Position numbers and translations under genes: made by a program
DNA from: a phage
Strand: one strand, 5' to 3'
Assembly: GCA_018509705.1 (NCBI GenBank)
Contig: GCA_018509705.1_3630.1
DNA: 64,000 bases
Notes under the pieces: generated by a model
Seen by the model: the letters and a program-made list of their open reading frames with translations, nothing else
Database searches by the model: none
Told to the model about the DNA's origin: nothing
Part shown: positions 2,822 through 64,000 of the stretch, piece after piece
Layout of the letters: each line of letters opens with the position of its first letter
How positions within the stretch are numbered: position 1 is the stretch's first letter

Positions 2822-3160
2822 TTAGCTATTGCTAACAGGTTGTATTTCTGTGGTAAATGGCATAAAAGGTGCTGGTTTTTCAGCCTCTTCTACTACCACC
2901 TCTTCCTCTTCACCAAACATCTCATCATATTCTTCCTGCATTCGGTCTGCCTTATCAAGAACATACTCTGCAATGCTTTGACGAATATTTTGTTTGGTTT
3001 TCGGGTCCAACATCAGCTCTCTTAAAACTTTGTGAGCTTCTGGAACCATCGCTATAAAAGATTCCTTCATATCAAGGATGTTCTTCTCTAGCTGAATGGC
3101 GTTGGACTCCTCTTTCAGAGGTCTGCCTCTACGGCGACGCTTTTTAGTTGTATCCGCCAT
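2822..3160 (-). CDS. hypothetical basic/acidic protein with AT-hook-like RGRP motif
   Basis: ATG at 3160 after GGAGG RBS; KKRRRRGRPLKE N-terminus, acidic C-terminus. Confidence 0.45.
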   Translation of the reverse strand: MADTTKKRRRRGRPLKEESNAIQLEKNILDMKESFIAMVPEAHKVLRELMLDPKTKQNIRQSIAEYVLDKADRMQEEYDEMFGEEEEVVVEEAEKPAPFMPFTTEIQPVSNS

Positions 3161-3504
3161 GTTTCCTCCATTATCACGTGATAGGTGGATTTTATCATAG
3201 CAAATACTGATTGTCAAGTTCGCCGCAGGGTGGTATTCCCTGCGACTTGTCCAGCGTCCTGGACCAGCAAGACCCAACAAGTGGGTTACCAGAGCCCATT
3301 ACCGCACTTTGGCTCGACCTTATTACAGGTTGGCTGGGGTCACATCGTCATGTGCTGGCTGCCCCTACCATTTTAAGTGTGGTGCACTATCAAGCCCTCT
3401 AAGGGGAACTCAGCCTTCTCCGAACCCTGTTTCAAAGCATCCGGAGATAAAGCCATCAAATTCATCTTTAAATTGGATATTCATCATGATACACGAAAAC
3501 AACC

Positions 3505-5219: not shown

Positions 5220-5570
5220 CTAACCAGTTGTTGACATTCGAATAACTTCTTCTGGTGGCAAAACTTTGGAAAATGTGCATCTTTTACCTCTCCCTTGTGT
5301 GGATATTTCAACCACTCCCGCACATTCTAAAGTTTTAACGCACGCTGCTGCTTTTGTTTTCTTTATTCCAACATCTGCTGCAATTTTCCTTGTGCTGGGT
5401 GTGAAGCGTGAACTTCCTCCAAGCTTATACCAGTTGTGCAGGTAGCAGTATACGATCTTGTCATACAAGTCAAGAACAACAACCTCCCCAGTTGTGTCAT
5501 TCAAAACTTTTGACATAGATAGTATTTCAAGGGGGACTTTAAGATATAGCAGCTTATCCCCATCTTTCAT
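5220..5570 (-). CDS. putative helix-turn-helix DNA-binding protein
   Basis: Segment TRKIAADVGIKKTKAAACVKTLE resembles an HTH; sits beside the palindromic tandem repeat. Confidence 0.35.
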   Translation of the reverse strand: MKDGDKLLYLKVPLEILSMSKVLNDTTGEVVVLDLYDKIVYCYLHNWYKLGGSSRFTPSTRKIAADVGIKKTKAAACVKTLECAGVVEISTQGRGKRCTFSKVLPPEEVIRMSTTG

Positions 5571-5617: not shown

Positions 5618-6172
5618 TTACTCCCCGCTGTCAATAGCAAAACTCATTGCAATACGGTATGCCTCTTCTAATGGTAAGAGTCTCCCCCACACATCCCAAC
5701 CGACATCAAACTGTCTGCCAAACAACTGTTGTGTGGTTCCGTGAGCATGACCGAACAGTTGGACTGATCCGTGAGGCTTTCTGTTCCACTTTGCAAACTG
5801 GTAATGGCTCATACAGATCAAATTCTTGTTGTGGCGAAGCTCGTAATAATCTACAACCTCATGACCGAACTCTTTCATAATTCTGACAGTCGTCCTTGTG
5901 TCATGGTTACCACGAACAAGAATAATATGTCCGTTCAACATATTTAGAACATCTGGGAGCAATTTGTTGATATTCTTATCATTAGTGCACGCAATATCTC
6001 CCAAGTGAAACACAGTGTCTGCAGGTGACACAACAGAGTTCCACTTGGTGATGATTCCCGCATTCATACTGTCAAGATTGTGATCATACTGAGATCTGTG
6101 TTTTTGACATGAGTCGAACTCCATGACCCGCTGGTGGAGAAAGTGTGTGTCGCTTGTTACAAAGTATTTCAT
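5618..6172 (-). CDS. calcineurin-like metallophosphoesterase (Ser/Thr-phosphatase fold)
   Basis: Motifs SDTH(F), LGDI, GNHD in order; start at MKYF with GAGGA RBS, 7 nt after stop of upstream kinase gene. Confidence 0.7.
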   Translation of the reverse strand: MKYFVTSDTHFLHQRVMEFDSCQKHRSQYDHNLDSMNAGIITKWNSVVSPADTVFHLGDIACTNDKNINKLLPDVLNMLNGHIILVRGNHDTRTTVRIMKEFGHEVVDYYELRHNKNLICMSHYQFAKWNRKPHGSVQLFGHAHGTTQQLFGRQFDVGWDVWGRLLPLEEAYRIAMSFAIDSGE

Positions 6173-6179
6173 ACATTCC

Positions 6180-6590
6180 TCATTTAAGTTTAATGCAGTT
6201 TTTAAGCTGGCGTTCCATACGATCCACAACCCTGTCTGGAACATCATGAATGCTTTTATTACCATGGCGGTTTTCAACCACGATCACGGTATAACTATAC
6301 CCATGACTGATCGCCATGTCAATATATTCTTGCACATATTTTTCTTTTGTAAACGTATTACTTACCACGATACGGTCGTATCCCATACGCATCATATCTT
6401 CTACGTTATCTTTGCACCATTTTGCTGCAAGTGTTACTTTACTTGCATCCCAGTTGTAATTTCCATCATCGTCGTACCAGAACATGTCGTTCTCAAAATG
6501 TGGATACAGACCTTCTAAAGATAGCGCATTTGCCAGTGTTGATTTGCCAGACCCTGGTAGACCACGCACGATATATAGCATTTTAGACAT
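6180..6590 (-). CDS. P-loop kinase, polynucleotide-kinase-like
   Basis: Walker A GLPGSGKST near N-terminus; GGAGG RBS before ATG at 6590; directly upstream of the phosphatase. Confidence 0.55.
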   Translation of the reverse strand: MSKMLYIVRGLPGSGKSTLANALSLEGLYPHFENDMFWYDDDGNYNWDASKVTLAAKWCKDNVEDMMRMGYDRIVVSNTFTKEKYVQEYIDMAISHGYSYTVIVVENRHGNKSIHDVPDRVVDRMERQLKNCIKLK

Positions 6591-6711
6591 AGTAATCCTC
6601 CGTTTTAATTTCAACGATAGTATACCCAACTGTTTTGTTAATTTCAAGTGTTGACACTAGGTTATTTGTGTGGCAGGATAGACTGACAAAATGACAAATG
6701 AGGAATGTATA

Positions 6712-7626
6712 ATGAAGTATTTTAATGCAGACGACCTAGTTGACAAAGGTCTTGTAACCAGCAGATATTACCCAGATCTTGGGTTAAAGATCTATAAATA
6801 TGCCAGAAAAGTATTCTACAACAACTTATGGCATTTGTCTCCTCGATTACTGGAGTGCCGAGGCATTGTTGTCGGTAATGAAGGAAATGTTGTGGCATGG
6901 CCCTTCACAAAAGTGTTTAACTTGGGAGAAAACTCCACCAACCTGCCTGACAATAAGCTTGTGACGGCGGTAGAGAAAAAGAACGGATTCCTTGGTGTGG
7001 TGTCATCTCATAAAGGTGAACTATTGTTCTCAACAACCGGGTCTCTTGATTCTCCATATTGTAACCTTGCAAAGGAAACCATCCAGGAGCAATGCAGTAA
7101 TTTAGATCTTATCAAGAAGGTTATGGGCAATGAAAACATGACATTCATGTTTGAAATTTGTCACCCTTCAGATCCGCATATTGTTCAGGAAGATCATGGT
7201 GCATATTTGATAGGTTGCAGATATAATGATTCTGGAATAATGCTACCAGAAGCAGCTTTAGATGGGATTGCCAAATACCTTGGTGCAAAACGTCCTCACA
7301 CTGTGCGTGAAATTCCGTTCAGTTATGCAAAAGAATTGGCTGCAGAAACAAGAGGTGAAGGGTATATGATTCGTAAGCCTTACTACCCTTATGATCTGCA
7401 GCTGAAGATTAAGTCTCCATACTATCTGGCACGGAAGGCCGTAATGAGGGGTAAAGCTTGGAAGATTTGGGATGATGATATCTTTAAACGTGTTGACGAA
7501 GAGTTTTACGGCATGGTAAACTTCATTCGTAACAACTACACAGAGGATGTATGGAACTGCCTCCTGGAGCAGGAACGCCGTGAGATACTTGATTACTATT
7601 TCCACAACGAGAACTATATGCAATGA
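6712..7626 (+). CDS. RNA ligase (covalent nucleotidyltransferase superfamily)
   Basis: Motif I KKNGF (KxNG), motif IV EGYMIRK, motif V LKIK; AGGAA RBS before ATG 6712 (alternative start 6691). Confidence 0.6.
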   Translation: MKYFNADDLVDKGLVTSRYYPDLGLKIYKYARKVFYNNLWHLSPRLLECRGIVVGNEGNVVAWPFTKVFNLGENSTNLPDNKLVTAVEKKNGFLGVVSSHKGELLFSTTGSLDSPYCNLAKETIQEQCSNLDLIKKVMGNENMTFMFEICHPSDPHIVQEDHGAYLIGCRYNDSGIMLPEAALDGIAKYLGAKRPHTVREIPFSYAKELAAETRGEGYMIRKPYYPYDLQLKIKSPYYLARKAVMRGKAWKIWDDDIFKRVDEEFYGMVNFIRNNYTEDVWNCLLEQERREILDYYFHNENYMQ

Positions 7627-7973
7627 AGAAGTTGATTGTGTGGCTAGATGACTTGAGAGATCCGTCAAATTATGGGCTCCCAGACGCTATTTGGCTAAAG
7701 AATTCCTCCGAGTTTATGGATTTTATTAACGATAATAAAAAGCTCTACAGACGCGTTTCTGAGTGGCATATGGACAACGACCTTGGAGAGGTATTCGAAG
7801 GGTACGATTGCCTATCCATGTTGGAGGAAAAGTTTGTATTTGGTAAGCCTCCTGTAGTTGACAACGTGAAGATTTTCGTGCATACTTCTAACCCATCAGC
7901 GGCTCGTAAATTCATGCTTGCGACTGACTCGTTTAAAAAGTTTGGAATAGAGATTAAACAAAACATCTACTGA
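7623..7973 (+). CDS. small receiver-domain-like protein
   Basis: IVWLDDLRDP ... HMDNDLG ... HTSNP spacing resembles a REC-fold acidic pocket; overlaps stop of RNA ligase. Confidence 0.3.
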   Translation: MKKLIVWLDDLRDPSNYGLPDAIWLKNSSEFMDFINDNKKLYRRVSEWHMDNDLGEVFEGYDCLSMLEEKFVFGKPPVVDNVKIFVHTSNPSAARKFMLATDSFKKFGIEIKQNIY

Positions 7974-7981
7974 GGACACTT

Positions 7982-8743
7982 ATGCGACGACTGATTGTTA
8001 TCTCCGGTGCTGGTTTGAGTGCTGAATCTGGTATTCCCACTTTCCGATCTGGTAGCACTGCAATGTGGGAGAATTTCAGCATCGATGAGGTGTGCAACAT
8101 CCACACCTTTGCCAAGAACTACTATAAGGTGCATGACTTTTACAATGCACGTCGTGTAGCTTTAGGCAGTGTTGAGCCTAACCTTGCACATCTTCGGATC
8201 GCTGAGTGGTATTCCCGCTGGTCTGGTCGTGTGATCAACCTTACCACCAATGTAGATGATTTGCTGGAGCGTGCTGGTGTAAAACATGAAGATATTTTAC
8301 ATGTCCACGGGTATTTGCCAGAAATAGTCTATGAGGACGATGAAGGAAGTGACGTCATTAAGGACATTGGATACTCTGAGGTAGACGCAGGAAAGTATAC
8401 CTGGGTTAAGCCTAATGTGGTGTTCTTCGGAGAAGTAGCTCCGAAGTATACAGACATGTATGACCTGTTGACTTCTCTTACGAGCAATGATATGGTTATC
8501 CTTGTAGGGTGCTCCAACACAGTTATCAATTTTAACTGGGAGCTATTCCCTGCCTGCAATAAGGGAACCAAACTACTGATCGTTAATAAATACGACTCAC
8601 AGCATCTAGAGGAGAATGGCATTTCACGTAGTGATATTTACCAGTATGAGGATCGCGGCATCCCAGTTTGGTTTAACGGTGCGGTTGATGCCTTCTCTGA
8701 TAAAACATTCATTGAGACTGTAGAAAACTTTATGGAACTTTAA
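7982..8743 (+). CDS. Sir2-family (sirtuin-like) NAD-dependent protein
   Basis: ISGAGLSAESGIPTFR matches sirtuin GAGISxxSGIPxFR; TTNVDDLLERAG and HG motifs follow. Confidence 0.7.
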   Translation: MRRLIVISGAGLSAESGIPTFRSGSTAMWENFSIDEVCNIHTFAKNYYKVHDFYNARRVALGSVEPNLAHLRIAEWYSRWSGRVINLTTNVDDLLERAGVKHEDILHVHGYLPEIVYEDDEGSDVIKDIGYSEVDAGKYTWVKPNVVFFGEVAPKYTDMYDLLTSLTSNDMVILVGCSNTVINFNWELFPACNKGTKLLIVNKYDSQHLEENGISRSDIYQYEDRGIPVWFNGAVDAFSDKTFIETVENFMEL

Positions 8744-8756
8744 AAGGAGACCTTTA

Positions 8757-9470
8757 ATGCTGAATACTAAATTAATTGACAACCTGGAAAAACTATCCCA
8801 ACCTGAAAACTACCTTTGGTCTGCCAACTGGGTGGAAAACTGGAACCGTGTGGCAGCTAAAGTGAAAAAATCATACACACCATTCGAATTACAGCTTAGC
8901 TTCATTGAGGAAGAGTTCAATGAAGTTTTGGAAGAGCTGGAGAAAGGTGATGGTGGAGATCACCTGCTAAAAGAGGCCTGCGATCTTCACGTTGTCACAA
9001 GTTATGCAGCTTATCTTGTTAATGACAATCACGAAAAGTGGTCAAACCTGTTTGATAATCCACGAGGTCTTAAGTTCAAGATCGGTGAGTTCTATGACAC
9101 ACTGATCGCTGCGAAAAACACATCCAAGCAAAGAGCGTCAGCTTACCGTTTAGCGGAGTTGTCAACAGCTTTGCTGTTCCAGCTTCGCGGCGATGTGTGC
9201 GGGATGATGCGTAAGGTTCTCAAATCGAATGACAGCAAGTTTGCACGGGTCAACCATCTACGGTATTCACACGGTGCCAGTGCAGATATGCCTGCTGAAC
9301 AACTCATCGAGTTGGAGATTAAAGATCTTGAGCGACGCTTTGATGGTCGATATGAAGGTTTTGTTGCTAAGGAAGAATTCTACAACGGTAATAAAGTTAT
9401 CATATTCCTCGACAGTAAAGGTAAGATTATGAAGCCTTCAAGCTTCAAGGATGTAACAGAATATATTTAA
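8757..9470 (+). CDS. hypothetical protein, possible MazG/HisE-like all-alpha NTP pyrophosphatase
   Basis: FIEEEFNEVLEELEK ... EACDL resembles EExxE...D motif; weak. Confidence 0.3.
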   Translation: MLNTKLIDNLEKLSQPENYLWSANWVENWNRVAAKVKKSYTPFELQLSFIEEEFNEVLEELEKGDGGDHLLKEACDLHVVTSYAAYLVNDNHEKWSNLFDNPRGLKFKIGEFYDTLIAAKNTSKQRASAYRLAELSTALLFQLRGDVCGMMRKVLKSNDSKFARVNHLRYSHGASADMPAEQLIELEIKDLERRFDGRYEGFVAKEEFYNGNKVIIFLDSKGKIMKPSSFKDVTEYI

Positions 9471-57259: not shown

Positions 57260-57655
57260 TCAATAAGTTTTTAGTACTTTCCCGTCCAATCTGTCAAGCT
57301 GGATCTCGATAGCTGCAGAAAACCTATTGTAAACCACATCGCCCAGGGAGTCCAGCCAATCTATGACGTTATATACCTGCTCTTTATTCTTGCAAGTCCG
57401 GATCCGTTTCATTACGTAAGACGGATCAATATTAGCGCTCTCGTTGTTGTGGTCCTGCGCCTGGCCTGCTGCGCTAGTTATAGATTTTACAACCACCTGA
57501 AAGGGCTTTAAGGTGCCTTTTGCGTTCATCTCACGCGCTTTTGCGGCGCGGTTGTTATATGTTACACAACGGCGGCAAATGTTGACCAAATGCATATCAA
57601 TAATTTTTTCATCGTTTGCCAGTTCGTTCATGATGCGGCGTACGTTCTTGTTCAT
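57260..57655 (-). CDS. hypothetical protein
   Basis: ORF track; AAAGGAAAAAG RBS. Confidence 0.45.
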   Translation of the reverse strand: MNKNVRRIMNELANDEKIIDMHLVNICRRCVTYNNRAAKAREMNAKGTLKPFQVVVKSITSAAGQAQDHNNESANIDPSYVMKRIRTCKNKEQVYNVIDWLDSLGDVVYNRFSAAIEIQLDRLDGKVLKTY

Positions 57656-57675
57656 GATCTTTTTCCTTTGTGCTG

Positions 57676-57731
57676 GCGGGAAACATTCCCGCCTTTTGTG
57701 TCTAGTTTACTTAAATTTTGCAGCGTGTCAA
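57676..57731 (-). promoter_or_regulatory. promoter (TTGACA-16-TAAACT) followed by leader hairpin GGCGGGAATGTTTCCCGCC
   Basis: Read on minus strand. Confidence 0.5.
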
Positions 57732-57737
57732 TGATTT

Positions 57738-58136
57738 TTATTCGTGGGCGCATGTTACAATGTGTTTTTTATAGCCCAGGTGGTCAGCAAGTGCCGACAA
57801 AAACTCTTCTTCGTAGATCCAGCCGTCGGCAGTGATCCCCATAGCATTTAATGCGCTCTCAAGTGCTGCGTTAGCTTTATCGTAACCGTGACCGCTCGCC
57901 TTGCCGCCAGTATAACCGTACTTATTGTTCTTGTTGTCGTGAATCCAAAACACGCAGTAGTGAGTGTTCCCGCTGGCGGCGGCATAATACCGGATCTCAG
58001 CTACTTCGTGCAAATTATTGTCATCGTCCAGGCCCACCAGATTATAAGCCTTGTAAAATCCACGATCACGGCGGCAGTTCTTGACATCAGAAAAAGAAAA
58101 GTCCGCATTATCAAAATTAAAGGTAGTGGTTTTCAT
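57738..58136 (-). CDS. hypothetical protein
   Basis: ORF track. Confidence 0.45.
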   Translation of the reverse strand: MKTTTFNFDNADFSFSDVKNCRRDRGFYKAYNLVGLDDDNNLHEVAEIRYYAAASGNTHYCVFWIHDNKNNKYGYTGGKASGHGYDKANAALESALNAMGITADGWIYEEEFLSALADHLGYKKHIVTCAHE

Positions 58137-58200
58137 GATTTTATCCTCTTAGTGTCTTTTGTGTTTTTAGTGTATTTGGTGTCGGACTATATGTCAATAC

Positions 58201-58398
58201 TTATTTTTTATTAAACCAGTGGTTGATCTGTCCTTTTGTCAGGGCGCAACGATTAAGCTGTTGCCGGGTATAGCTCTGACCGCGACGGAATTTATAAAGG
58301 CCTTGCCCGTTGTTGATGGTTACGTCCACCTGGCAAACCATTTGATCGGTGACCACCTGGCGAGTGTTGCGACGTACTTTGATCCCGTATGCGTTCAT
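58201..58398 (-). CDS. hypothetical small basic protein
   Basis: AGAGGA RBS before ATG 58398. Confidence 0.4.
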   Translation of the reverse strand: MNAYGIKVRRNTRQVVTDQMVCQVDVTINNGQGLYKFRRGQSYTRQQLNRCALTKGQINHWFNKK

Positions 58399-58481
58399 AA
58401 ATTTATCCTCTTTACTGGTTAGTGCGGTGTTGTTCACCTTGTAGGGTAATAATACCATGATTAACCTTGTTGTCAACGATT

Positions 58482-58622
58482 ATTTTAAATTATTTTTATG
58501 ATAGAATCCACCTGCCGCCCCCGCCAGGTTAACCACCATTTTTTCGTACTCTTCTTTATGTTCCCGCGCTTCTGTATCATTAATCACTACATTTCCCAGG
58601 TGAGTAGCATTACCTTTCATTT
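58482..58622 (-). CDS. hypothetical small protein (46 aa)
   Basis: Strong GAGGAGG RBS; MKGNATHLGNVVINDTEAREHKEEYEKMVVNLAGAAGGFYHK... Confidence 0.35.
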
Positions 58623-58759
58623 TTGTACCTCCTCTTCAATTGTTTACCCTACAGCATGGGCCTACCAGGTTTGCAAGATTTCACCCTCTCCCACCTGGTC
58701 AGTTAGGTCCTGCCAGGTTGCAACGGTTAGCGCATCAGGTTAGAAAAATTTTTTGAAAA

Positions 58760-59030
58760 GGTGTTGACAGCGGCCCCGCCAGGGGGCACAATATACCTAT
58801 CGAAAGGACGGCAGGCACCGGTGACGGGGGAGACAACCACCGGGGATGGGCGCTGCATAAAATGAGAACGGTTATCATTATCATTTAAAAATTTATGCAA
58901 AAAATCCTTGCCTTCTTTGTCCTGTGTGATACTATAATAACAAGCCGGGGCAACAGGGGCCGGGAGACAATCACCGGGCCTGCCCGTTATTCTGCAAACG
59001 AGAATGATTATCATTCAAAATTCTAAATGA
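58760..59030 (+). ncRNA. two tandem homologous GC-rich structured units, each behind a promoter-like sequence; candidate small RNAs
   Basis: Unit 1 ...GGGGGAGACAACCACCGGGGA...AAATGAGAACGGTTATCATTATCATTT; unit 2 ...GGCCGGGAGACAATCACCGGGCC...AAACGAGAATGATTATCATTCAAAATT; TTGACA and TTGCCT-16-TACTAT upstream. Confidence 0.25.
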
Positions 59031-59224
59031 GAACTCCTCGCATTTAATAAATTTAATTAGCATGCTAATTACCCTCCGTAACAATTTCCTATAAAACAGT
59101 ATCCCATAAAATATTCCCATATAGAAATTTTAAAAATCCATTTCTGAAAACGAAAAATCGATTTCGTCCCCAAAAATTTCAGGTCGAGAGCTGGAACGAT
59201 TTCCAGAAAATCCGATTCAGAAAA

Positions 59225-59315
59225 CGAAAAACAGATCGAGTACTTGGAAATTTATCGAGAAAAATTTTCAGAAAATTCAATCTTTGAAACGAAAAACAGA
59301 TCGAGTACTTGGAAA
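59225..59315. repeat. perfect 26-bp direct repeat x2 inside an AT-rich GAAAA-repeat tract
   Basis: CGAAAAACAGATCGAGTACTTGGAAA at 59225-59250 and 59290-59315. Confidence 0.65.
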
Positions 59316-59620
59316 GCTGTACCGCAACTTCAAGATAGTGGCTGGATTATTGCCATAAAAGGCCAAGGGCGAGTGGGAAAGTTCTGGTAGAAGGGTGTGA
59401 GCATACGCGGAAAATCTGGAATGGTAGCCCGGAATATGACGCAAACGATAGGATGAGTGGTTCAGCTCATCGTGTCTACCCTGAAAAATCCATTTTAGTT
59501 TTCGATCCGTTTTCTGATTTTCTAAGAATTTTAAAATATCTGGCCTGGTGAAATATCAAAAAGGAGGAAATCCATTTTAGAAATCCCCCTTATACTTGAT
59601 ATGCCAGAAATTTTCAAGTA

Positions 59621-59950
59621 TCAGCTATCTTTGTTTTTAGGTTTATACATGCGGAGAGGTATAGTCTTTGTAACATTCCACTTCCTCAACCCTTCCCAGC
59701 TCCAATTGTGGGCGTGGTATCCGGTTATGCATGCACTGCTAGAGTGATCGTAAGCATAAGAGAACGCTAAGCGCACCAGGTGAGGCCAGTCCTTCCACGG
59801 TTGTGGCCCGTAAGCTTTTCTCCAACACCGACACAAACTAAATGTCTCAAGGATAGGAAGGATAACAAACCCATACACTGTAACCAAAATAGTCAGTGCA
59901 ATGATTGTCAGGAACACATACCCTGCAGTTGAAATGATGATCTCTGTCAT
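59621..59950 (-). CDS. membrane protein
   Basis: N-terminal TM IIISTAGYVFLTIIALTILVTVYGFVILPIL. Confidence 0.45.
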   Translation of the reverse strand: MTEIIISTAGYVFLTIIALTILVTVYGFVILPILETFSLCRCWRKAYGPQPWKDWPHLVRLAFSYAYDHSSSACITGYHAHNWSWEGLRKWNVTKTIPLRMYKPKNKDS

Positions 59951-60210
59951 TTGTCGTCCCCTTTCTTACGGATATAAATGTGAGAACCTGCCTGTATATA
60001 AATTTCTCGACCATCTTCTGCAAAGATGTGGAATACACGATCACCTTCGTACTCGATACGAGATATCTTCATGATTGTCTTTCCACCTGGGATGCGGATC
60101 TCGTCTCCCACAGCGATGTTCCATGCAGATTTAAGCTTAAACATCCGCACCCTCCTTTGGGAACTCGAATTCTGGCATAGCCATATACGCCACAACAGGG
60201 TTGTAATCAA
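59947..60210 (-). CDS. hypothetical small protein
   Basis: ORF track; overlaps neighbours by 4 nt. Confidence 0.4.
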   Translation of the reverse strand: MITTLLWRIWLCQNSSSQRRVRMFKLKSAWNIAVGDEIRIPGGKTIMKISRIEYEGDRVFHIFAEDGREIYIQAGSHIYIRKKGDDK

Positions 60211-60382
60211 AGTAGAAATGACCGTTAATTATCCCAGTTTTGTGAGCATAGTCACCAGATCCTGCAAGAACAACCTCGCAAACTCCGAAATCCACCTTGC
60301 CATTCTCATCTGCCATGGCTACAATATACTTTCCTAGAGGCATGTTTTTAACGCCGTCTACAAATGTCCACCCTTTGTTCAT
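60137..60382 (-). CDS. hypothetical small protein
   Basis: ORF track. Confidence 0.35.
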   Translation of the reverse strand: MNKGWTFVDGVKNMPLGKYIVAMADENGKVDFGVCEVVLAGSGDYAHKTGIINGHFYFDYNPVVAYMAMPEFEFPKEGADV

Positions 60383-60403
60383 AACTTTATCTCCTGGACT
60401 TTC

Positions 60404-60736
60404 TTAAGGTAACCAGTAAACAATTTCGCCTTTCAGTTCCATGTCGTTACCGACATAGATTTTCCAGCCATCCATTTTAGCCACTGCAGGAGTGAAGTCC
60501 GTAGAACCACTAACCTCTTTCCAAGTCCCGTAGTCAGGTTGCCAGATATAGAATCCACCTTCCTTGTCCCATGCTCCATATACCACATCGAGCAGGTTGC
60601 CCATTGCAACAATAGTGGGCCGTGGGAATAATACATCTACAGATGCGCCACAATTTCGGGTAGATTTTAAATTACAATCCCAAAAGATGTCTGCCAGTGT
60701 AGCGGCAATAGCTTTACGTCTTTCTAATGTTACCAT
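60404..60736 (-). CDS. hypothetical protein
   Basis: ORF track. Confidence 0.45.
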   Translation of the reverse strand: MVTLERRKAIAATLADIFWDCNLKSTRNCGASVDVLFPRPTIVAMGNLLDVVYGAWDKEGGFYIWQPDYGTWKEVSGSTDFTPAVAKMDGWKIYVGNDMELKGEIVYWLP

Positions 60737-60743
60737 ATCATAC

Positions 60744-60935
60744 TCACTTGTTGTTAATAAGTTCTAAAACTTTCTGTCTTACTTTGTCAAGGTCTGTTGA
60801 TTCAAAAACTGTGCGATATTCCCAACTTTGCCCATAGGAGTGACTGCAATCCCCGTAGCACCATTGCTCAATTTGATAGTATTCAAGGAACGGGTGCTGT
60901 CTAACTATGATACCATCCCGGTTAAAAATTACCAT
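60744..60935 (-). CDS. hypothetical small protein
   Basis: ORF track. Confidence 0.4.
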   Translation of the reverse strand: MVIFNRDGIIVRQHPFLEYYQIEQWCYGDCSHSYGQSWEYRTVFESTDLDKVRQKVLELINNK

Positions 60936-60998
60936 AATACATCGCTCTCTGTTAGTTTATGCGTATATTATACACTGCAGTTTTCAGATGTCAACCTC

Positions 60999-61250
60999 TT
61001 ACAGATTGCTCCAGTACAATCGGCATTTACATTTTGGGCAATGAGGTTCTTTTATGTAATAACCGTCAGTCTTTGGAACACTTTTTGGTGCAGTTTTAAT
61101 ATTGTACCTGGTAAAACATCGGAAGCAGGTTACCTCTCCGATCTGTTGATCGTTAATCCACTCGCCAGAGTAAAGCTCTTTCTTGTTTCTCATAATTCTC
61201 TTCAAAATCCTCTGCAATCTTATACCAAAATCTCCAGCCAGAAAGCACAC
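60999..61250 (-). CDS. small zinc-ribbon protein
   Basis: CFRCF ... CPKCKC pairs. Confidence 0.4.
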   Translation of the reverse strand: MCFLAGDFGIRLQRILKRIMRNKKELYSGEWINDQQIGEVTCFRCFTRYNIKTAPKSVPKTDGYYIKEPHCPKCKCRLYWSNL

Positions 61251-61444
61251 GGGAACACTTTGAGGATTGAATCTTTACTTGGCTCGGAAGTTCTTTTTCC
61301 GTATGGTAGGTAGAAATACCCTCCTGCAGATTCGAATATAGCTCCTTCGGTTGTATCTACCACAGCAAGAATTAAGATTTTAGTCTCCACAGTGCTCCCC
61401 TCTCTTAGTTGTTGTGGTGACTATACCATCTCAAAAACCAGCTG

Positions 61445-61942
61445 TCAACACTTTTTGTACTCCACCACGATAATATCCATATCAAAAGTGGCAAGGTTAA
61501 TAACGTCCTCTACGTGCTCCCACTTCAAACCGCCTATGCCGCACCCGATCTTAGGGATGTAGAATGGTAAAGTCGATCCACTGAATACCTCATTGACTAG
61601 CTCAAAGCCTTTCAGGATTGAGAAATATTCAGCATTAGGTCCTGGGTAGAACTGAGTATACAGATTGATTCCGTAGACAATACCTCTCGGAGATAAGTGC
61701 TCCCATCGGGAGAACGCACCCAGTTTACTTAGGCAACCATGTCTGGTCTCTTTGTCAGCTGCCAATGCTTGAGGGAACTCACGGGTAATCTGTTTTGCTA
61801 TCCCCTTGCCCATTGTGTGGAAGCAGTTACAACCGTGGATCAGGTGACCAGCACCACTCTTAAAAAGGGAGATTAAATCTCCCTCTACAGTATCAATAAT
61901 CACGGTATTCCAGCTCCTCTTCTGCAATTTCCAAAAACTCAT
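61445..61942 (-). CDS. macro domain protein of the TARG1/OARD1 type (predicted ADP-ribose hydrolase)
   Basis: GDLISLF, HGCNCFHTMGKGIA, IPKIGCGIGGLKWEHV line up with TARG1 motifs GDLF, HCISEDCRMGAGIA, MPRIGCGLDRLQWENV. Confidence 0.65.
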   Translation of the reverse strand: MSFWKLQKRSWNTVIIDTVEGDLISLFKSGAGHLIHGCNCFHTMGKGIAKQITREFPQALAADKETRHGCLSKLGAFSRWEHLSPRGIVYGINLYTQFYPGPNAEYFSILKGFELVNEVFSGSTLPFYIPKIGCGIGGLKWEHVEDVINLATFDMDIIVVEYKKC

Positions 61943-62318
61943 CCCAACCCTGTGGCATATTTGAGTTGCCGAAGTGGCTTTCGTAGTAGAGATTTTTACC
62001 ACTTGGAAGGTAGAAATCTGTTACCTCATAGAATCCACAATCGTCGCACTCACCTTCTTCAAACTTGGCCTCAACCTTAATACCGAGGAAGGTGAAAAGT
62101 TTATGGATATCTTCAGTTTCGAACTCCCAGTGAATGTTGTTTTCCGCATCGGTGTAGAACTGGATCAGCAGACCATTGTCCAGTTTACCAAAATACTCTG
62201 TGAAGTAACTTCCTTCCCAGAAATCTTTATGACAAATAATATCCATGCGTTTGCCCATAATAATGGTGTGAGCGTTTTGGGCATCGTCACGAATCAGTTT
62301 TGGCATTTCATAGATCAT
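61893..62318 (-). CDS. hypothetical acidic protein
   Basis: ORF track. Confidence 0.4.
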   Translation of the reverse strand: MIYEMPKLIRDDAQNAHTIIMGKRMDIICHKDFWEGSYFTEYFGKLDNGLLIQFYTDAENNIHWEFETEDIHKLFTFLGIKVEAKFEEGECDDCGFYEVTDFYLPSGKNLYYESHFGNSNMPQGWDEFLEIAEEELEYRDY

Positions 62319-62383
62319 CTTAGTTCTCCGGGTTCAACAGGTGGTGCTACAGGAAGATCATAAAACATGGCTATCACAGTCTC

Positions 62384-62581
62384 TTACACAGGAATTGCTT
62401 CAAATAGACCGTTATCTATACCGTCCTTCAGATAGAGATTATATTCTATATCGGTATCTGTATAAAGGGCAGCATCCAGCATTCTATCTGTGAGTCCATC
62501 CATCGGGTGGAGAAACCACCACCCACGCCAGTCAAAGTAACAGCCTGGTGCATCTTCTCTTACACGGATTCGATAAATCAT
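62384..62581 (-). CDS. hypothetical small protein
   Basis: ORF track. Confidence 0.35.
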   Translation of the reverse strand: MIYRIRVREDAPGCYFDWRGWWFLHPMDGLTDRMLDAALYTDTDIEYNLYLKDGIDNGLFEAIPV

Positions 62582-62677
62582 GGGCAGTGGCCTCCTGTTA
62601 GTTATACATCCCAGTTTTCTTCGTTCATCACGTCCTCCCGTTCTATGAAGTTATAATTGCACACCTTTCAACCTGTG

Positions 62678-63094
62678 TCAACAGAAAACTTCAACAAATT
62701 CTTCCACAGTTTTAATGTCGTGGGAAAAAGGTTTACGGCTATAACGGGCAATAGCACTATCAACCACCGCCCGGTACTCCAAATCTTCAGAATATTTCAT
62801 GAAGCATTGCAGCGTCTCTGGGCAGATAGCTAAATAGCTCCACCACCCCTCTTCAGATTGGTAGTCGAATCCCATACTCTCCAACCATGAAGCATATACG
62901 CCTGCACCCTCAAGCCAGTGAGTATTTTCATCCAGAAACTTGTTAATAGACATGTGAGCTTCTAAGCATTTATCCAGCTCTTTTCCGTTAACCAGCCACG
63001 CACTGACCATGGCGCATCCAAGGTCTACAGATTGAGTTGACAGGTTGTATTGGTCATAGTTCTCAGGTTTAACAATGATATCTTCTAATGTCAT
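62678..63094 (-). CDS. hypothetical protein
   Basis: ORF track. Confidence 0.45.
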   Translation of the reverse strand: MTLEDIIVKPENYDQYNLSTQSVDLGCAMVSAWLVNGKELDKCLEAHMSINKFLDENTHWLEGAGVYASWLESMGFDYQSEEGWWSYLAICPETLQCFMKYSEDLEYRAVVDSAIARYSRKPFSHDIKTVEEFVEVFC

Positions 63095-63155
63095 TTTTCA
63101 GATCTCCTTATACAAAAAGCCCCACCCTTTCGGGCAGGGCTATGTTAGTTATGTG

Positions 63156-63734
63156 TTAAAAGTATTCATAGAAGTATCCATCTGGAGCTGGAATTTTTTC
63201 ATGAATGTAGTAACCAATATATATTCCAGTTTCTCTGCTACAAGAGTTGTGGGATACCCATTCTTTAAGAACGTTACCATTCATGTCCAACCTCCTTACA
63301 TTTTTGCACCGTCTACCGCTGGTGCTTCTATGTAACAGAATATCCTCTGTCTGCTTGTCTTTATTTTCTCCCCAAGTCGTTAAACGGATATTATCAAAAG
63401 AGTACCCTTTGAAATCATCTATCCTGTCGCAAGAAGGCTTTTTCCTTTTGTCGTATCCGCTGGCTACCCACTGATCATACAACTCTTTGTAACCGTTTAG
63501 GTATAGCCACTCCTTAAACTCTTTTTTGGTGTAAGTCGGAGGAGGGTGACCTCTTTGCTTGCTGTTGCACTTTTGAGCCTTGTACAACACACGTATTACA
63601 CCTTTTTCTGAAGAGTCTTTAGCAAATTGGTCAGCCTCCCTGCTGGCCTTCTTGCAACACTCTTTGCACGTTGATTTGTTACTGGTGTAGAAGTCGGAGG
63701 CCTCCTTGTCCTCTCCACAACGTTTGCATTTCAT
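63156..63734 (-). CDS. HNH homing endonuclease with N-terminal zinc ribbon
   Basis: MKCKRCG...CKECC then SCDRIDDFKGYSFDNIRLTTWGEN HNH core. Confidence 0.6.
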   Translation of the reverse strand: MKCKRCGEDKEASDFYTSNKSTCKECCKKASREADQFAKDSSEKGVIRVLYKAQKCNSKQRGHPPPTYTKKEFKEWLYLNGYKELYDQWVASGYDKRKKPSCDRIDDFKGYSFDNIRLTTWGENKDKQTEDILLHRSTSGRRCKNVRRLDMNGNVLKEWVSHNSCSRETGIYIGYYIHEKIPAPDGYFYEYF

Positions 63735-63742
63735 AACTGACC

Positions 63743-64000
63743 TCAGAAAGGGATCGAGTCATCGAACTCATACTGTGCTGGATTCTGGCCCATCGGGTCA
63801 TCTTCCTCGTCATTTACAGGAGGAGCGTCTACAGTGTTTTGCTGTGGAGCGGCTTCCTGTTTGGCAGTTTGAGGTTCTTGATGGTCAGTTGACCCAGCCC
63901 CGTTCTTGATCCAATCGTACAACGGCTCAGCCAGATTAGTCAAGACATCTTTTGCTTCTGTAGTAATTGCCACTGCAAAATCATCAACTTTCGTTTTCTT
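63743..64000 (-). CDS. ssb: single-stranded DNA-binding protein, C-terminal part (gene starts beyond window end)
   Basis: Gln/Pro-rich linker ending in acidic tail EFDDSIPF, like bacterial SSB DDDIPF. Confidence 0.5.
   Translation of the reverse strand, partial: KKTKVDDFAVAITTEAKDVLTNLAEPLYDWIKNGAGSTDHQEPQTAKQEAAPQQNTVDAPPVNDEEDDPMGQNPAQYEFDDSIPF

Follow-up and report, generated by a model that had tools for sequence, protein, structure and literature searches.

The window analysed here is a stretch of 64,000 nucleotides (nt) of phage DNA (GenBank assembly GCA_018509705.1, contig GCA_018509705.1_3630.1), and our subject is a short minus-strand gene within it, at 61445..61903, which encodes a macro domain of 152 amino acids (aa). 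It is likely that the product of this gene is a single-domain ADP-ribosyl hydrolase of the Tk.4/AdfM family, and that it would most probably strip DarT2 marks from phage DNA. The gene and the elements within and before it that bear on this proposal are given below in window positions, and residues are numbered throughout on the 152-aa, GTG-initiated protein.

61445..61903, minus strand: macro-domain gene, 152 aa, GTG start and TGA stop (homologue lengths, profiles, fold and public gene calls)
61914..61919, minus strand: Shine-Dalgarno sequence GAGGAG, 10 nt 5' of the GTG start (read from the sequence)
61826..61828, minus strand: codon for Asn26 in the motif H-G-C-N-C, equivalent to Asn22 of DarG and Asn27 of SCO6735 (alignments)
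61796..61810, minus strand: G-K-G-I-A loop, residues 32-36, the first ADP-ribose/phosphate-binding loop (alignment; G32, G34 and A36 invariant or nearly so)
61652..61654, minus strand: codon CAG for Gln84 in the motif N-L-Y-T-Q (alignments)
61529..61549, minus strand: I-G-C-G-I-G-G, residues 119-125, Gly-rich phosphate-binding loop (alignments)

One long minus-strand open reading frame (ORF) spans 61445-62002, and the true start of the macro gene within it is almost certainly the GTG at 61903, 39 nt inside an ATG at 61942. This start is preferred because the 120 homologues recovered are mostly 150-155 aa long and cover only 92% of the 165-aa reading from the ATG, because the orthologue is annotated as 459 nt (RefSeq/GenBank) in phages FFH2, slur12, rV5 and phiWec193, because T4 Tk.4 aligns to the GTG-initiated product from residue 1 onward, and because of the GAGGAG site. 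The ATG at 61942 was rejected on homologue lengths, public gene calls and the lack of a comparable ribosome-binding site, and a further GTG at 62002 on homologue lengths, public gene calls and ribosome-binding site. A preliminary description of this DNA had given the gene as 61445-61942; its end at 61445 on the minus strand stands, and its start is moved from the ATG to the GTG at 61903. The Pfam, PHROG, NCBIfam and PADLOC searches reported below were made with the 165-aa reading.

The source of the window is a Vequintavirus, that is, an rV5-like phage of Escherichia coli, and the macro region is 96-97% identical to that of Escherichia phages inoa, ime and FFH2 and of about 115 other Vequintavirus genomes. 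Public records label the orthologue variously as 'hypothetical protein', 'phosphatase' or 'macro domain protein', and the rV5 record calls it 'Tk.4 conserved hypothetical protein; similar to RB49 Tk.4'. The Vequintavirus orthologues are under purifying selection, with a ratio of nonsynonymous to synonymous substitution rates (dN/dS) of 0.10-0.16, and they fall into two old allele groups, one comprising the window, FFH2 and phiWec193 and the other rV5 and slur12, which share 80% amino-acid identity at dS >1. A separate observation concerns phage Alma (OV101294), whose macro gene has lost a single nt from a stretch of five T at about 5460..5504 (window 61860..61903); it is because of this deletion near the 5' end that the gene is annotated there as a shortened ORF of 369 nt, and the deletion reflects either an error of sequencing or a genuine frameshift.

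Sequence profiles and the predicted fold together confirm that 61445..61903 encodes a macro domain of the TARG1/ALC1-like class. The Pfam Macro family (PF01661) is matched at 27.8 bits against a curated cut-off of 22, and PHROG 335, labelled 'phosphatase', at an expectation value (E) of 3.7e-58, while the DarG profiles of PADLOC and NCBIfam match at E 9e-14 and 2e-12, in their macro part only; the NCBIfam model (NF048014) reaches 47.4 bits where its cut-off is 250, with positions 3-141 of its 338 matched. Searched with phmmer against the sequences of the Protein Data Bank (PDB), the protein finds in order DarG's macrodomain from Mycobacterium tuberculosis (5M3I, E 3.5e-7), yeast Poa1p, SCO6735, BT1257 and human TARG1. 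A 108-sequence alignment served as input for AlphaFold2, which returned a model of alternating strands and helices, in keeping with the three-layer alpha/beta/alpha macro fold around a central mixed sheet, with a mean local confidence (pLDDT) of 96.8 and a predicted template-modelling score (pTM) of 0.91. Compared with the PDB by Foldseek, this model has as its top matches TARG1, Poa1p, DarG, BT1257 and SCO6735, all at probability 1.00 and template-modelling scores (TM) of 0.72-0.82. TARG1 ranks first (E 5e-10, TM 0.76-0.82) and is followed by Poa1p, the DarG macrodomains of Thermus and Mycobacterium (TM 0.75-0.78), BT1257, Thermosipho DarTG and SCO6735, with viral and other macro domains ranking below these; of the 191 matches at E <= 0.001, the top 50 are all macro domains except for a set of designed serine hydrolases. 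The family profile ranks the PDB sequences otherwise, placing BT1257 (E 4e-19) before SCO6735 (E 3e-17), Poa1p (E 5e-15), M. tuberculosis DarG (E 4e-14), TARG1 (E 8e-14) and T. aquaticus DarG (E 7e-12). The preliminary description had recognised a TARG1/DarG-type macro domain and proposed a profile search for the macro fold; the matches in Pfam, PHROG 335 and the DarG profiles, together with the fold search, bear it out, and the GxGIA loop and IGCG motif that it named are both there, at residues 32-36 and 119-125.

The evidence that carries the proposed function comes from phage T4. T4 Tk.4 (NC_000866, 60922..61389) is 39% identical to the window protein at E 4e-41, with residues 1-150 aligned to 1-152, and reciprocal tblastn searches lead from the window to the 'tk.4: phosphatase' genes of T-even phages and from T4 back to the same rV5 gene, with a single copy in each of the two groups of phages. 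Both are single-domain proteins of 152-155 aa, encoded among small non-structural genes, that share the motifs HGCNCFHTMG, NLYTQF and IG(C/A)GIG and a Gln at the site of the catalytic Lys; thus the window protein holds the Tk.4-family motifs H-G-C-N-C-F-H-T-M-G and N-x-Y-T-Q. They differ in their setting, since the T4 gene lies between vs and tk in a member of the Straboviridae, whereas the window gene belongs to the Vequintavirinae and has another neighbourhood. T4 deprived of adfA and adfN stayed resistant to DarTG2, which implied a further factor (PMC11825919), and a preprint of November 2025 reported that tk.4 was the single T4 gene depleted from a transposon library on a DarTG2 host and that a clean tk.4 knockout turned DarTG2-sensitive, whereupon the gene was renamed adfM (bioRxiv 10.1101/2025.11.20.689424). 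It is for the T4 protein that the phenotype was demonstrated; for the window protein a counter-defence role against DarTG2 is supported by full-length identity of 39% to a protein whose loss sensitises T4. The preliminary description had suggested counter-defence against DarT-like ADP-ribosylation of DNA, which agrees with the T4 genetics. The family itself is large, tblastn finding it in 2,779 phage records out of 50,697; among representatives clustered at 50%, 18,924 match it at E <= 1e-3 and 1,570 at E <= 1e-30.

Fusion proteins point in the same direction. Among the top representatives of the family, the ten longest include five in which the Tk.4-type macro domain is fused to a NADAR domain; one of the five also weakly matches the family of T4 gp30.3. 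In DarG1 and in phage AdfN, ADP-ribose linked to guanine is taken off by the NADAR fold (PMC11825919), and the fusion ties the macro family to the reversal of DNA ADP-ribosylation; such fusions suggest that one polypeptide may erase the marks left on thymidine by DarT2 as well as those left on guanine by DarT1. Among the fusion proteins P0124, P0168, P0199, P0154, P0174 and P0136, NADAR is found in five and DUF4326 in two.

The elements conserved across the family are H23-G-C-N26-C-F-H-T-M-G-x-G-I-A, D50, K60-L-G62, N80-x-Y-T-Q84, P-K-I-G-C-G-[IL]-[AG]-G-G and W128. Asn26 is unchanged in all 120 homologues and in 140 of 140 further representatives from an exhaustive search, and the column of Gln84 holds Gln in 116 of the former and 139 of the latter (about 97-99%). 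Gln84 stands where the catalytic Lys implied by the preliminary description was expected, as it aligns with K84 of TARG1, K80 of Thermus DarG and K78 of PhiKZ gp104, and also with Gln85 of SCO6735; the motif at this site is LYTQF in the window and T4 proteins, as opposed to FPTKK, FPTKD and LITKK in the Lys-type proteins. For this position HMMER alignments were used, because the MAFFT alignment misplaces SCO6735 and Bt_1257 near the Gln, where they have a loop insertion. Human TARG1/OARD1 (4J5R, 4J5S), the top Foldseek match, has the IGCG loop in common with the window protein. Its dyad Lys84/Asp125 corresponds to Gln84 and Gly124, and the residue aligned with Asn26 is a Ser. TARG1-type Lys/Asp chemistry was therefore rejected, given Gln84 and Gly124 at the aligned positions.

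A Gln in place of the Lys is not peculiar to phages. SCO6735 of Streptomyces coelicolor and Bt_1257 of Bacteroides (PDB 5E3B, 2FG1), the top PDB matches to the family profile, are cellular proteins of about 23-25% identity that have the same substitution together with the conserved His, Asn and Gly loops. SCO6735 hydrolyses the thymidine-ADP-ribose that DarT makes on DNA faster than DarG or TARG1 do, and it is inactivated by the change Q85A; a water-initiated mechanism was proposed for it, and thymidine de-ADP-ribosylation was called a unifying activity of the ALC1-like class (PMC9411070). The role of the Asn equivalent to Asn26 has likewise been described (PMC13309987; PMC9411070). Loss of the catalytic Lys, which the preliminary description had named as an outcome that would refute its reading, does not refute it, since the Gln-type SCO6735 is active and T4 Tk.4 is active as judged by genetics. 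The two cellular proteins belong to a subclass defined by a 'mobile loop' that exceeds that of DarG and TARG1 by five residues (PMC9411070), and SCO6735 accordingly has a 5-residue insertion just after the Gln relative to the window protein, in which this loop is missing. Having Gln84 and lacking the loop, the window protein is, on the alignments, a Gln-type macrodomain with a short loop.

The lost Lys could also mean that the protein binds ADP-ribose without catalysis, in which case it would soak up or sense immune signals derived from ADP-ribose. Among macro domains there are readers that are not enzymes (Iyer et al. 2022), and two family representatives give a weak co-match to Pfam ThsA_Macro. 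Against this, the Gln at the same site is needed for catalysis in SCO6735 (PMC9411070), and Asn26, His23 and the two Gly loops vary little or not at all, as expected for an enzyme. We therefore regard a purely binding role as highly improbable. Reversal of protein or RNA ADP-ribosylation, aimed at other host ADP-ribosyltransferase defences or toxins, or else a broad multi-substrate eraser, is quite unlikely in our judgment. SCO6735 and TARG1 do take ADP-ribose off proteins too (PMC9411070), the macro fold is versatile across substrates (Iyer et al. 2022), and bacterial RNA ADP-ribosylation with enzymes that reverse it is reported (PMC11833690). However, the sole genetic phenotype in the family is specific to DarTG2, NADAR, the partner that recurs in the fusions, acts specifically on bases of nucleic acids, and in the reannotated relative FFH2, at 50000-139020, which covers the region matching the window, no product is named as an ADP-ribosyltransferase. 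The fusion partners and the conserved catalytic residues thus make both alternatives less likely than hydrolysis of DarT2 marks on DNA.

Comparison with proteins known to act against DarT2 refines the assignment. The DarG2 macrodomains of T. aquaticus and M. tuberculosis (5M31, 5M3E, 5M3I) are of the same class and fold (TM 0.75-0.78) and share the Asn (N22, equivalent to N26); DarG gives the best single-sequence match in the PDB (E 3.5e-7), and in NCBIfam and PADLOC it is the only match. They differ in having Lys80 in F-P-T-K where the window protein has L-Y-T-Q with Gln84. Judged by the DarG equivalog model, the 152-aa window protein lacks the C-terminal domain that binds DarT, and a scan of the ten neighbouring ORFs recognised no DarT gene. 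A full DarG antitoxin or a toxin-antitoxin pair was rejected on these two grounds. PhiKZ gp104, the chimallivirus 'AdfM', is also a single-domain phage macrodomain of this class with the conserved Asn (Asn23), and it strips DarT2 ADP-ribose from DNA, counters DarTG2 and is imported into the phage nucleus (Cell Rep 2026, PMC13309987). Yet its identity to the window protein comes to only 21% (E 2e-5; hhalign probability 97%), and it keeps the DarG-type Lys78 (FPTKD). Because the Tk.4 family almost always has Gln and PhiKZ has Lys, the two proteins that bear the name AdfM are, as far as their residues tell, mechanistically different branches. Yeast Poa1p belongs to the same class (Foldseek TM 0.72), the comparison here being one of similarity alone.

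Taking these points together, we propose that the macro protein would act against DarTG2 as follows. It is probably made early, from host-type promoters, and would remove the ADP-ribose that host DarT2 puts on thymidines of single-stranded phage DNA, so that phage replication and transcription could keep going in DarTG2-carrying cells. The GKGIA and IGCGIGG loops would grip the diphosphate and the distal ribose, and Asn26 and Gln84 would orient the N-glycosidic bond between ribose and thymine for attack by water, by a Lys-independent mechanism as proposed for SCO6735 and not by the Lys-Schiff-base route of TARG1. Lacking a DarT-binding domain, the protein would erase the modification instead of sequestering the toxin.

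Several points weigh against this proposal. In the literature we found no test of any Vequintavirus copy on DarTG2, and the transposon library of Bas54, a member of the Vequintavirinae, is not reported as having been challenged with DarTG2 (bioRxiv 10.1101/2025.11.20.689424). The T4 evidence consists of preprint genetics, with no biochemistry on Tk.4 found in the literature; the T4 and window proteins share only 39% identity, and promiscuity is a trait of macrodomains. The window protein lacks the catalytic Lys that DarG, TARG1 and PhiKZ AdfM have, and also the longer 'mobile loop' credited with the high DNA activity of SCO6735. The ten neighbouring ORFs gave no functional clue, holding unknown-function PHROGs, a zinc-binding domain and an endonuclease. 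Finally, one published argument holds that low-molecular-weight derivatives of ADP-ribose are the substrates of most phage macro domains (Iyer et al. 2022).

In the main rival reading, the protein would be a phosphatase of ADP-ribose-1''-phosphate (Appr1p), or a processor of small ADP-ribose derivatives, that completes an NAD-dependent RNA repair of the phage's own. In such a pathway a sirtuin would act like KptA on RNA ends bearing a 2'-phosphate, opening the cyclic phosphate would be the task of a cREC protein, and the macro domain would take the phosphate off Appr1p. The window does contain a cluster suited to this at 5618..9470.

5618..6277, minus strand: calcineurin-like phosphoesterase
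6180..6647, minus strand: AAA_33/zeta-like kinase
6691..7626: Rnl1-type RNA ligase
7623..7973: cREC domain protein
7982..8743: SIR2-family protein
8757..9470: 237-aa ORF (MazG-like), with no Pfam match; its FFH2 counterpart is annotated as nucleotide pyrophosphohydrolase

The corresponding cluster of phage V5 was described as a predicted NAD-dependent RNA-repair system, without a macro gene beside it (Iyer et al. 2022). Poa1p is an Appr1p phosphatase of the same class, matched by the family profile at the E of 5e-15 given above, and public annotations of the macro gene say 'phosphatase'. That label, however, is inherited from the old motif name 'A1pp', and the macro gene lies about 53 kb from the cluster, on the opposite strand. 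Moreover, the sirtuin pathway is a prediction only, the annotated neighbourhood of T4 tk.4 has no sirtuin-cREC cluster, and the only phenotype reported in the family, that of T4, is sensitivity to DarTG2. An RNA-repair role in place of DarTG2 counter-defence seems to us improbable.

A bolder reading joins the two functions. Among thymidine-ADP-ribose hydrolases, Tk.4-type macrodomains may make up a third subclass by mechanism, one that depends on Gln as SCO6735 does but has the short loop seen in DarG and TARG1, and that is distinct from the Lys-type PhiKZ 'AdfM', and in Vequintaviruses they would perhaps also supply the missing Appr1p step of sirtuin-cREC RNA repair; we hold this to be unlikely as a whole. 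If it were true, a natural experiment on the interconversion of the two chemistries would be at hand in Krischvirus ECD7 (RB49-like, KY683735), whose Tk.4 has Lys (AAA) at the catalytic-Lys site where others have Gln (CAG or CAA), which hints at a rare switch between the two residues. ECD7 Tk.4 (3001..3456) is at the same time the closest copy outside the Vequintaviruses, with 67% identity to the Vequintavirus protein as against about 40% for other T-even copies. The gene sits there at the canonical position vs-tk.4-tk, and several rV5 genes near the macro orthologue are also annotated as RB49-like, which suggests gene exchange between rV5-like and RB49-like phages.

With regard to novelty, relatives have carried the annotation 'Tk.4' or 'macro domain protein' for this gene ever since the rV5 record, and the function of the family is now described; the gene is thus an ordinary member of a known family and the conceptual gain is small. 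New here are the start codon as corrected, the active-site Gln that T4 and SCO6735 likewise have in place of Lys, the separation from the PhiKZ 'AdfM' and the fusions to NADAR. The analysis would extend the anti-DarTG2 factor Tk.4/AdfM from T4 to rV5-like phages, candidate agents of therapy and biocontrol, and it predicts that such phages withstand DarTG2-carrying E. coli because of the macro gene.

The genes around the macro gene are small minus-strand ORFs. Those referred to below, and the signals found near them, are the following.

61893..62318, minus strand: 141-aa ORF, function not assigned (PHROG 8157), whose stop overlaps the macro start by 11 nt (ORF list and PHROG)
62384..62581, minus strand: 65-aa ORF, function not assigned (PHROG 9903), first gene after a promoter-like site (ORF list and PHROG)
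62653..62681, minus strand: sigma-70-like promoter, TTGACA, 17 nt, AATTAT, with TG (consensus scan alone)
63118..63141: terminator-like hairpin just upstream of the promoter-like site 62653..62681
61420..61448, minus strand: sigma-70-like promoter, TTGACA, 17 nt, TATAGT, 11/12 (consensus scan alone), overlapping the macro stop codon
60967..60994, minus strand: perfect sigma-70 consensus, TTGACA, 16 nt, TATAAT, 12/12, upstream of a 63-aa ORF at 60744..60935
61220..61390, minus strand: 56-aa ORF just downstream of the macro gene (PHROG 15268, unknown function)
63156..63734, minus strand: 192-aa ORF, PHROG 1035 ('endonuclease VII'), with a weak HNH match

The 11-nt overlap makes it probable that the 141-aa ORF and the macro gene share a transcript and are coupled in translation, and the same arrangement is seen in FFH2, rV5, slur12 and phiWec193. 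The site at 62653..62681 is a candidate promoter for a three-gene unit ending in the macro gene, and that at 61420..61448 would serve the next small ORF; the perfect match at 60967..60994 counts among several strong promoters of host type in this block. Sigma-70-like sites are more numerous in the region than expected (19 observed vs 10.5 +/- 3.3) and the rV5 record has an annotated sigma-70 promoter nearby, so early expression by the host polymerase is plausible. No Rfam family reached threshold in a search of 57500-64000 for structured RNA. The 56-aa ORF at 61220..61390 bears the label 'putative macro domain protein' in Alma, which we rejected as the ORF has no Pfam match and falls in PHROG 15268; the label is probably misplaced.

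Further upstream, the window, rV5 and slur12 have the 192-aa ORF, while in FFH2, Alma and phiWec193 its place is taken by a hypothetical ORF of 408 aa; since the allele groups of the macro gene do not track this split, the locus is mosaic. On the other side, at 58700..59600, lies a gene-poor stretch of about 1 kb that is without coding annotation in relatives. Three direct repeats of about 57 nt with no Rfam match occur at 59120-59176, 59194-59250 and 59259-59315, at a spacing of 65-74 nt. As to the relatives themselves, 16 records named 'Campylobacter phage' (host C. jejuni) match window 60400..63100 at a nucleotide identity of at least 90%; one of them (A132) is just 70.7 kb long, and these may be mislabelled or contaminated entries.

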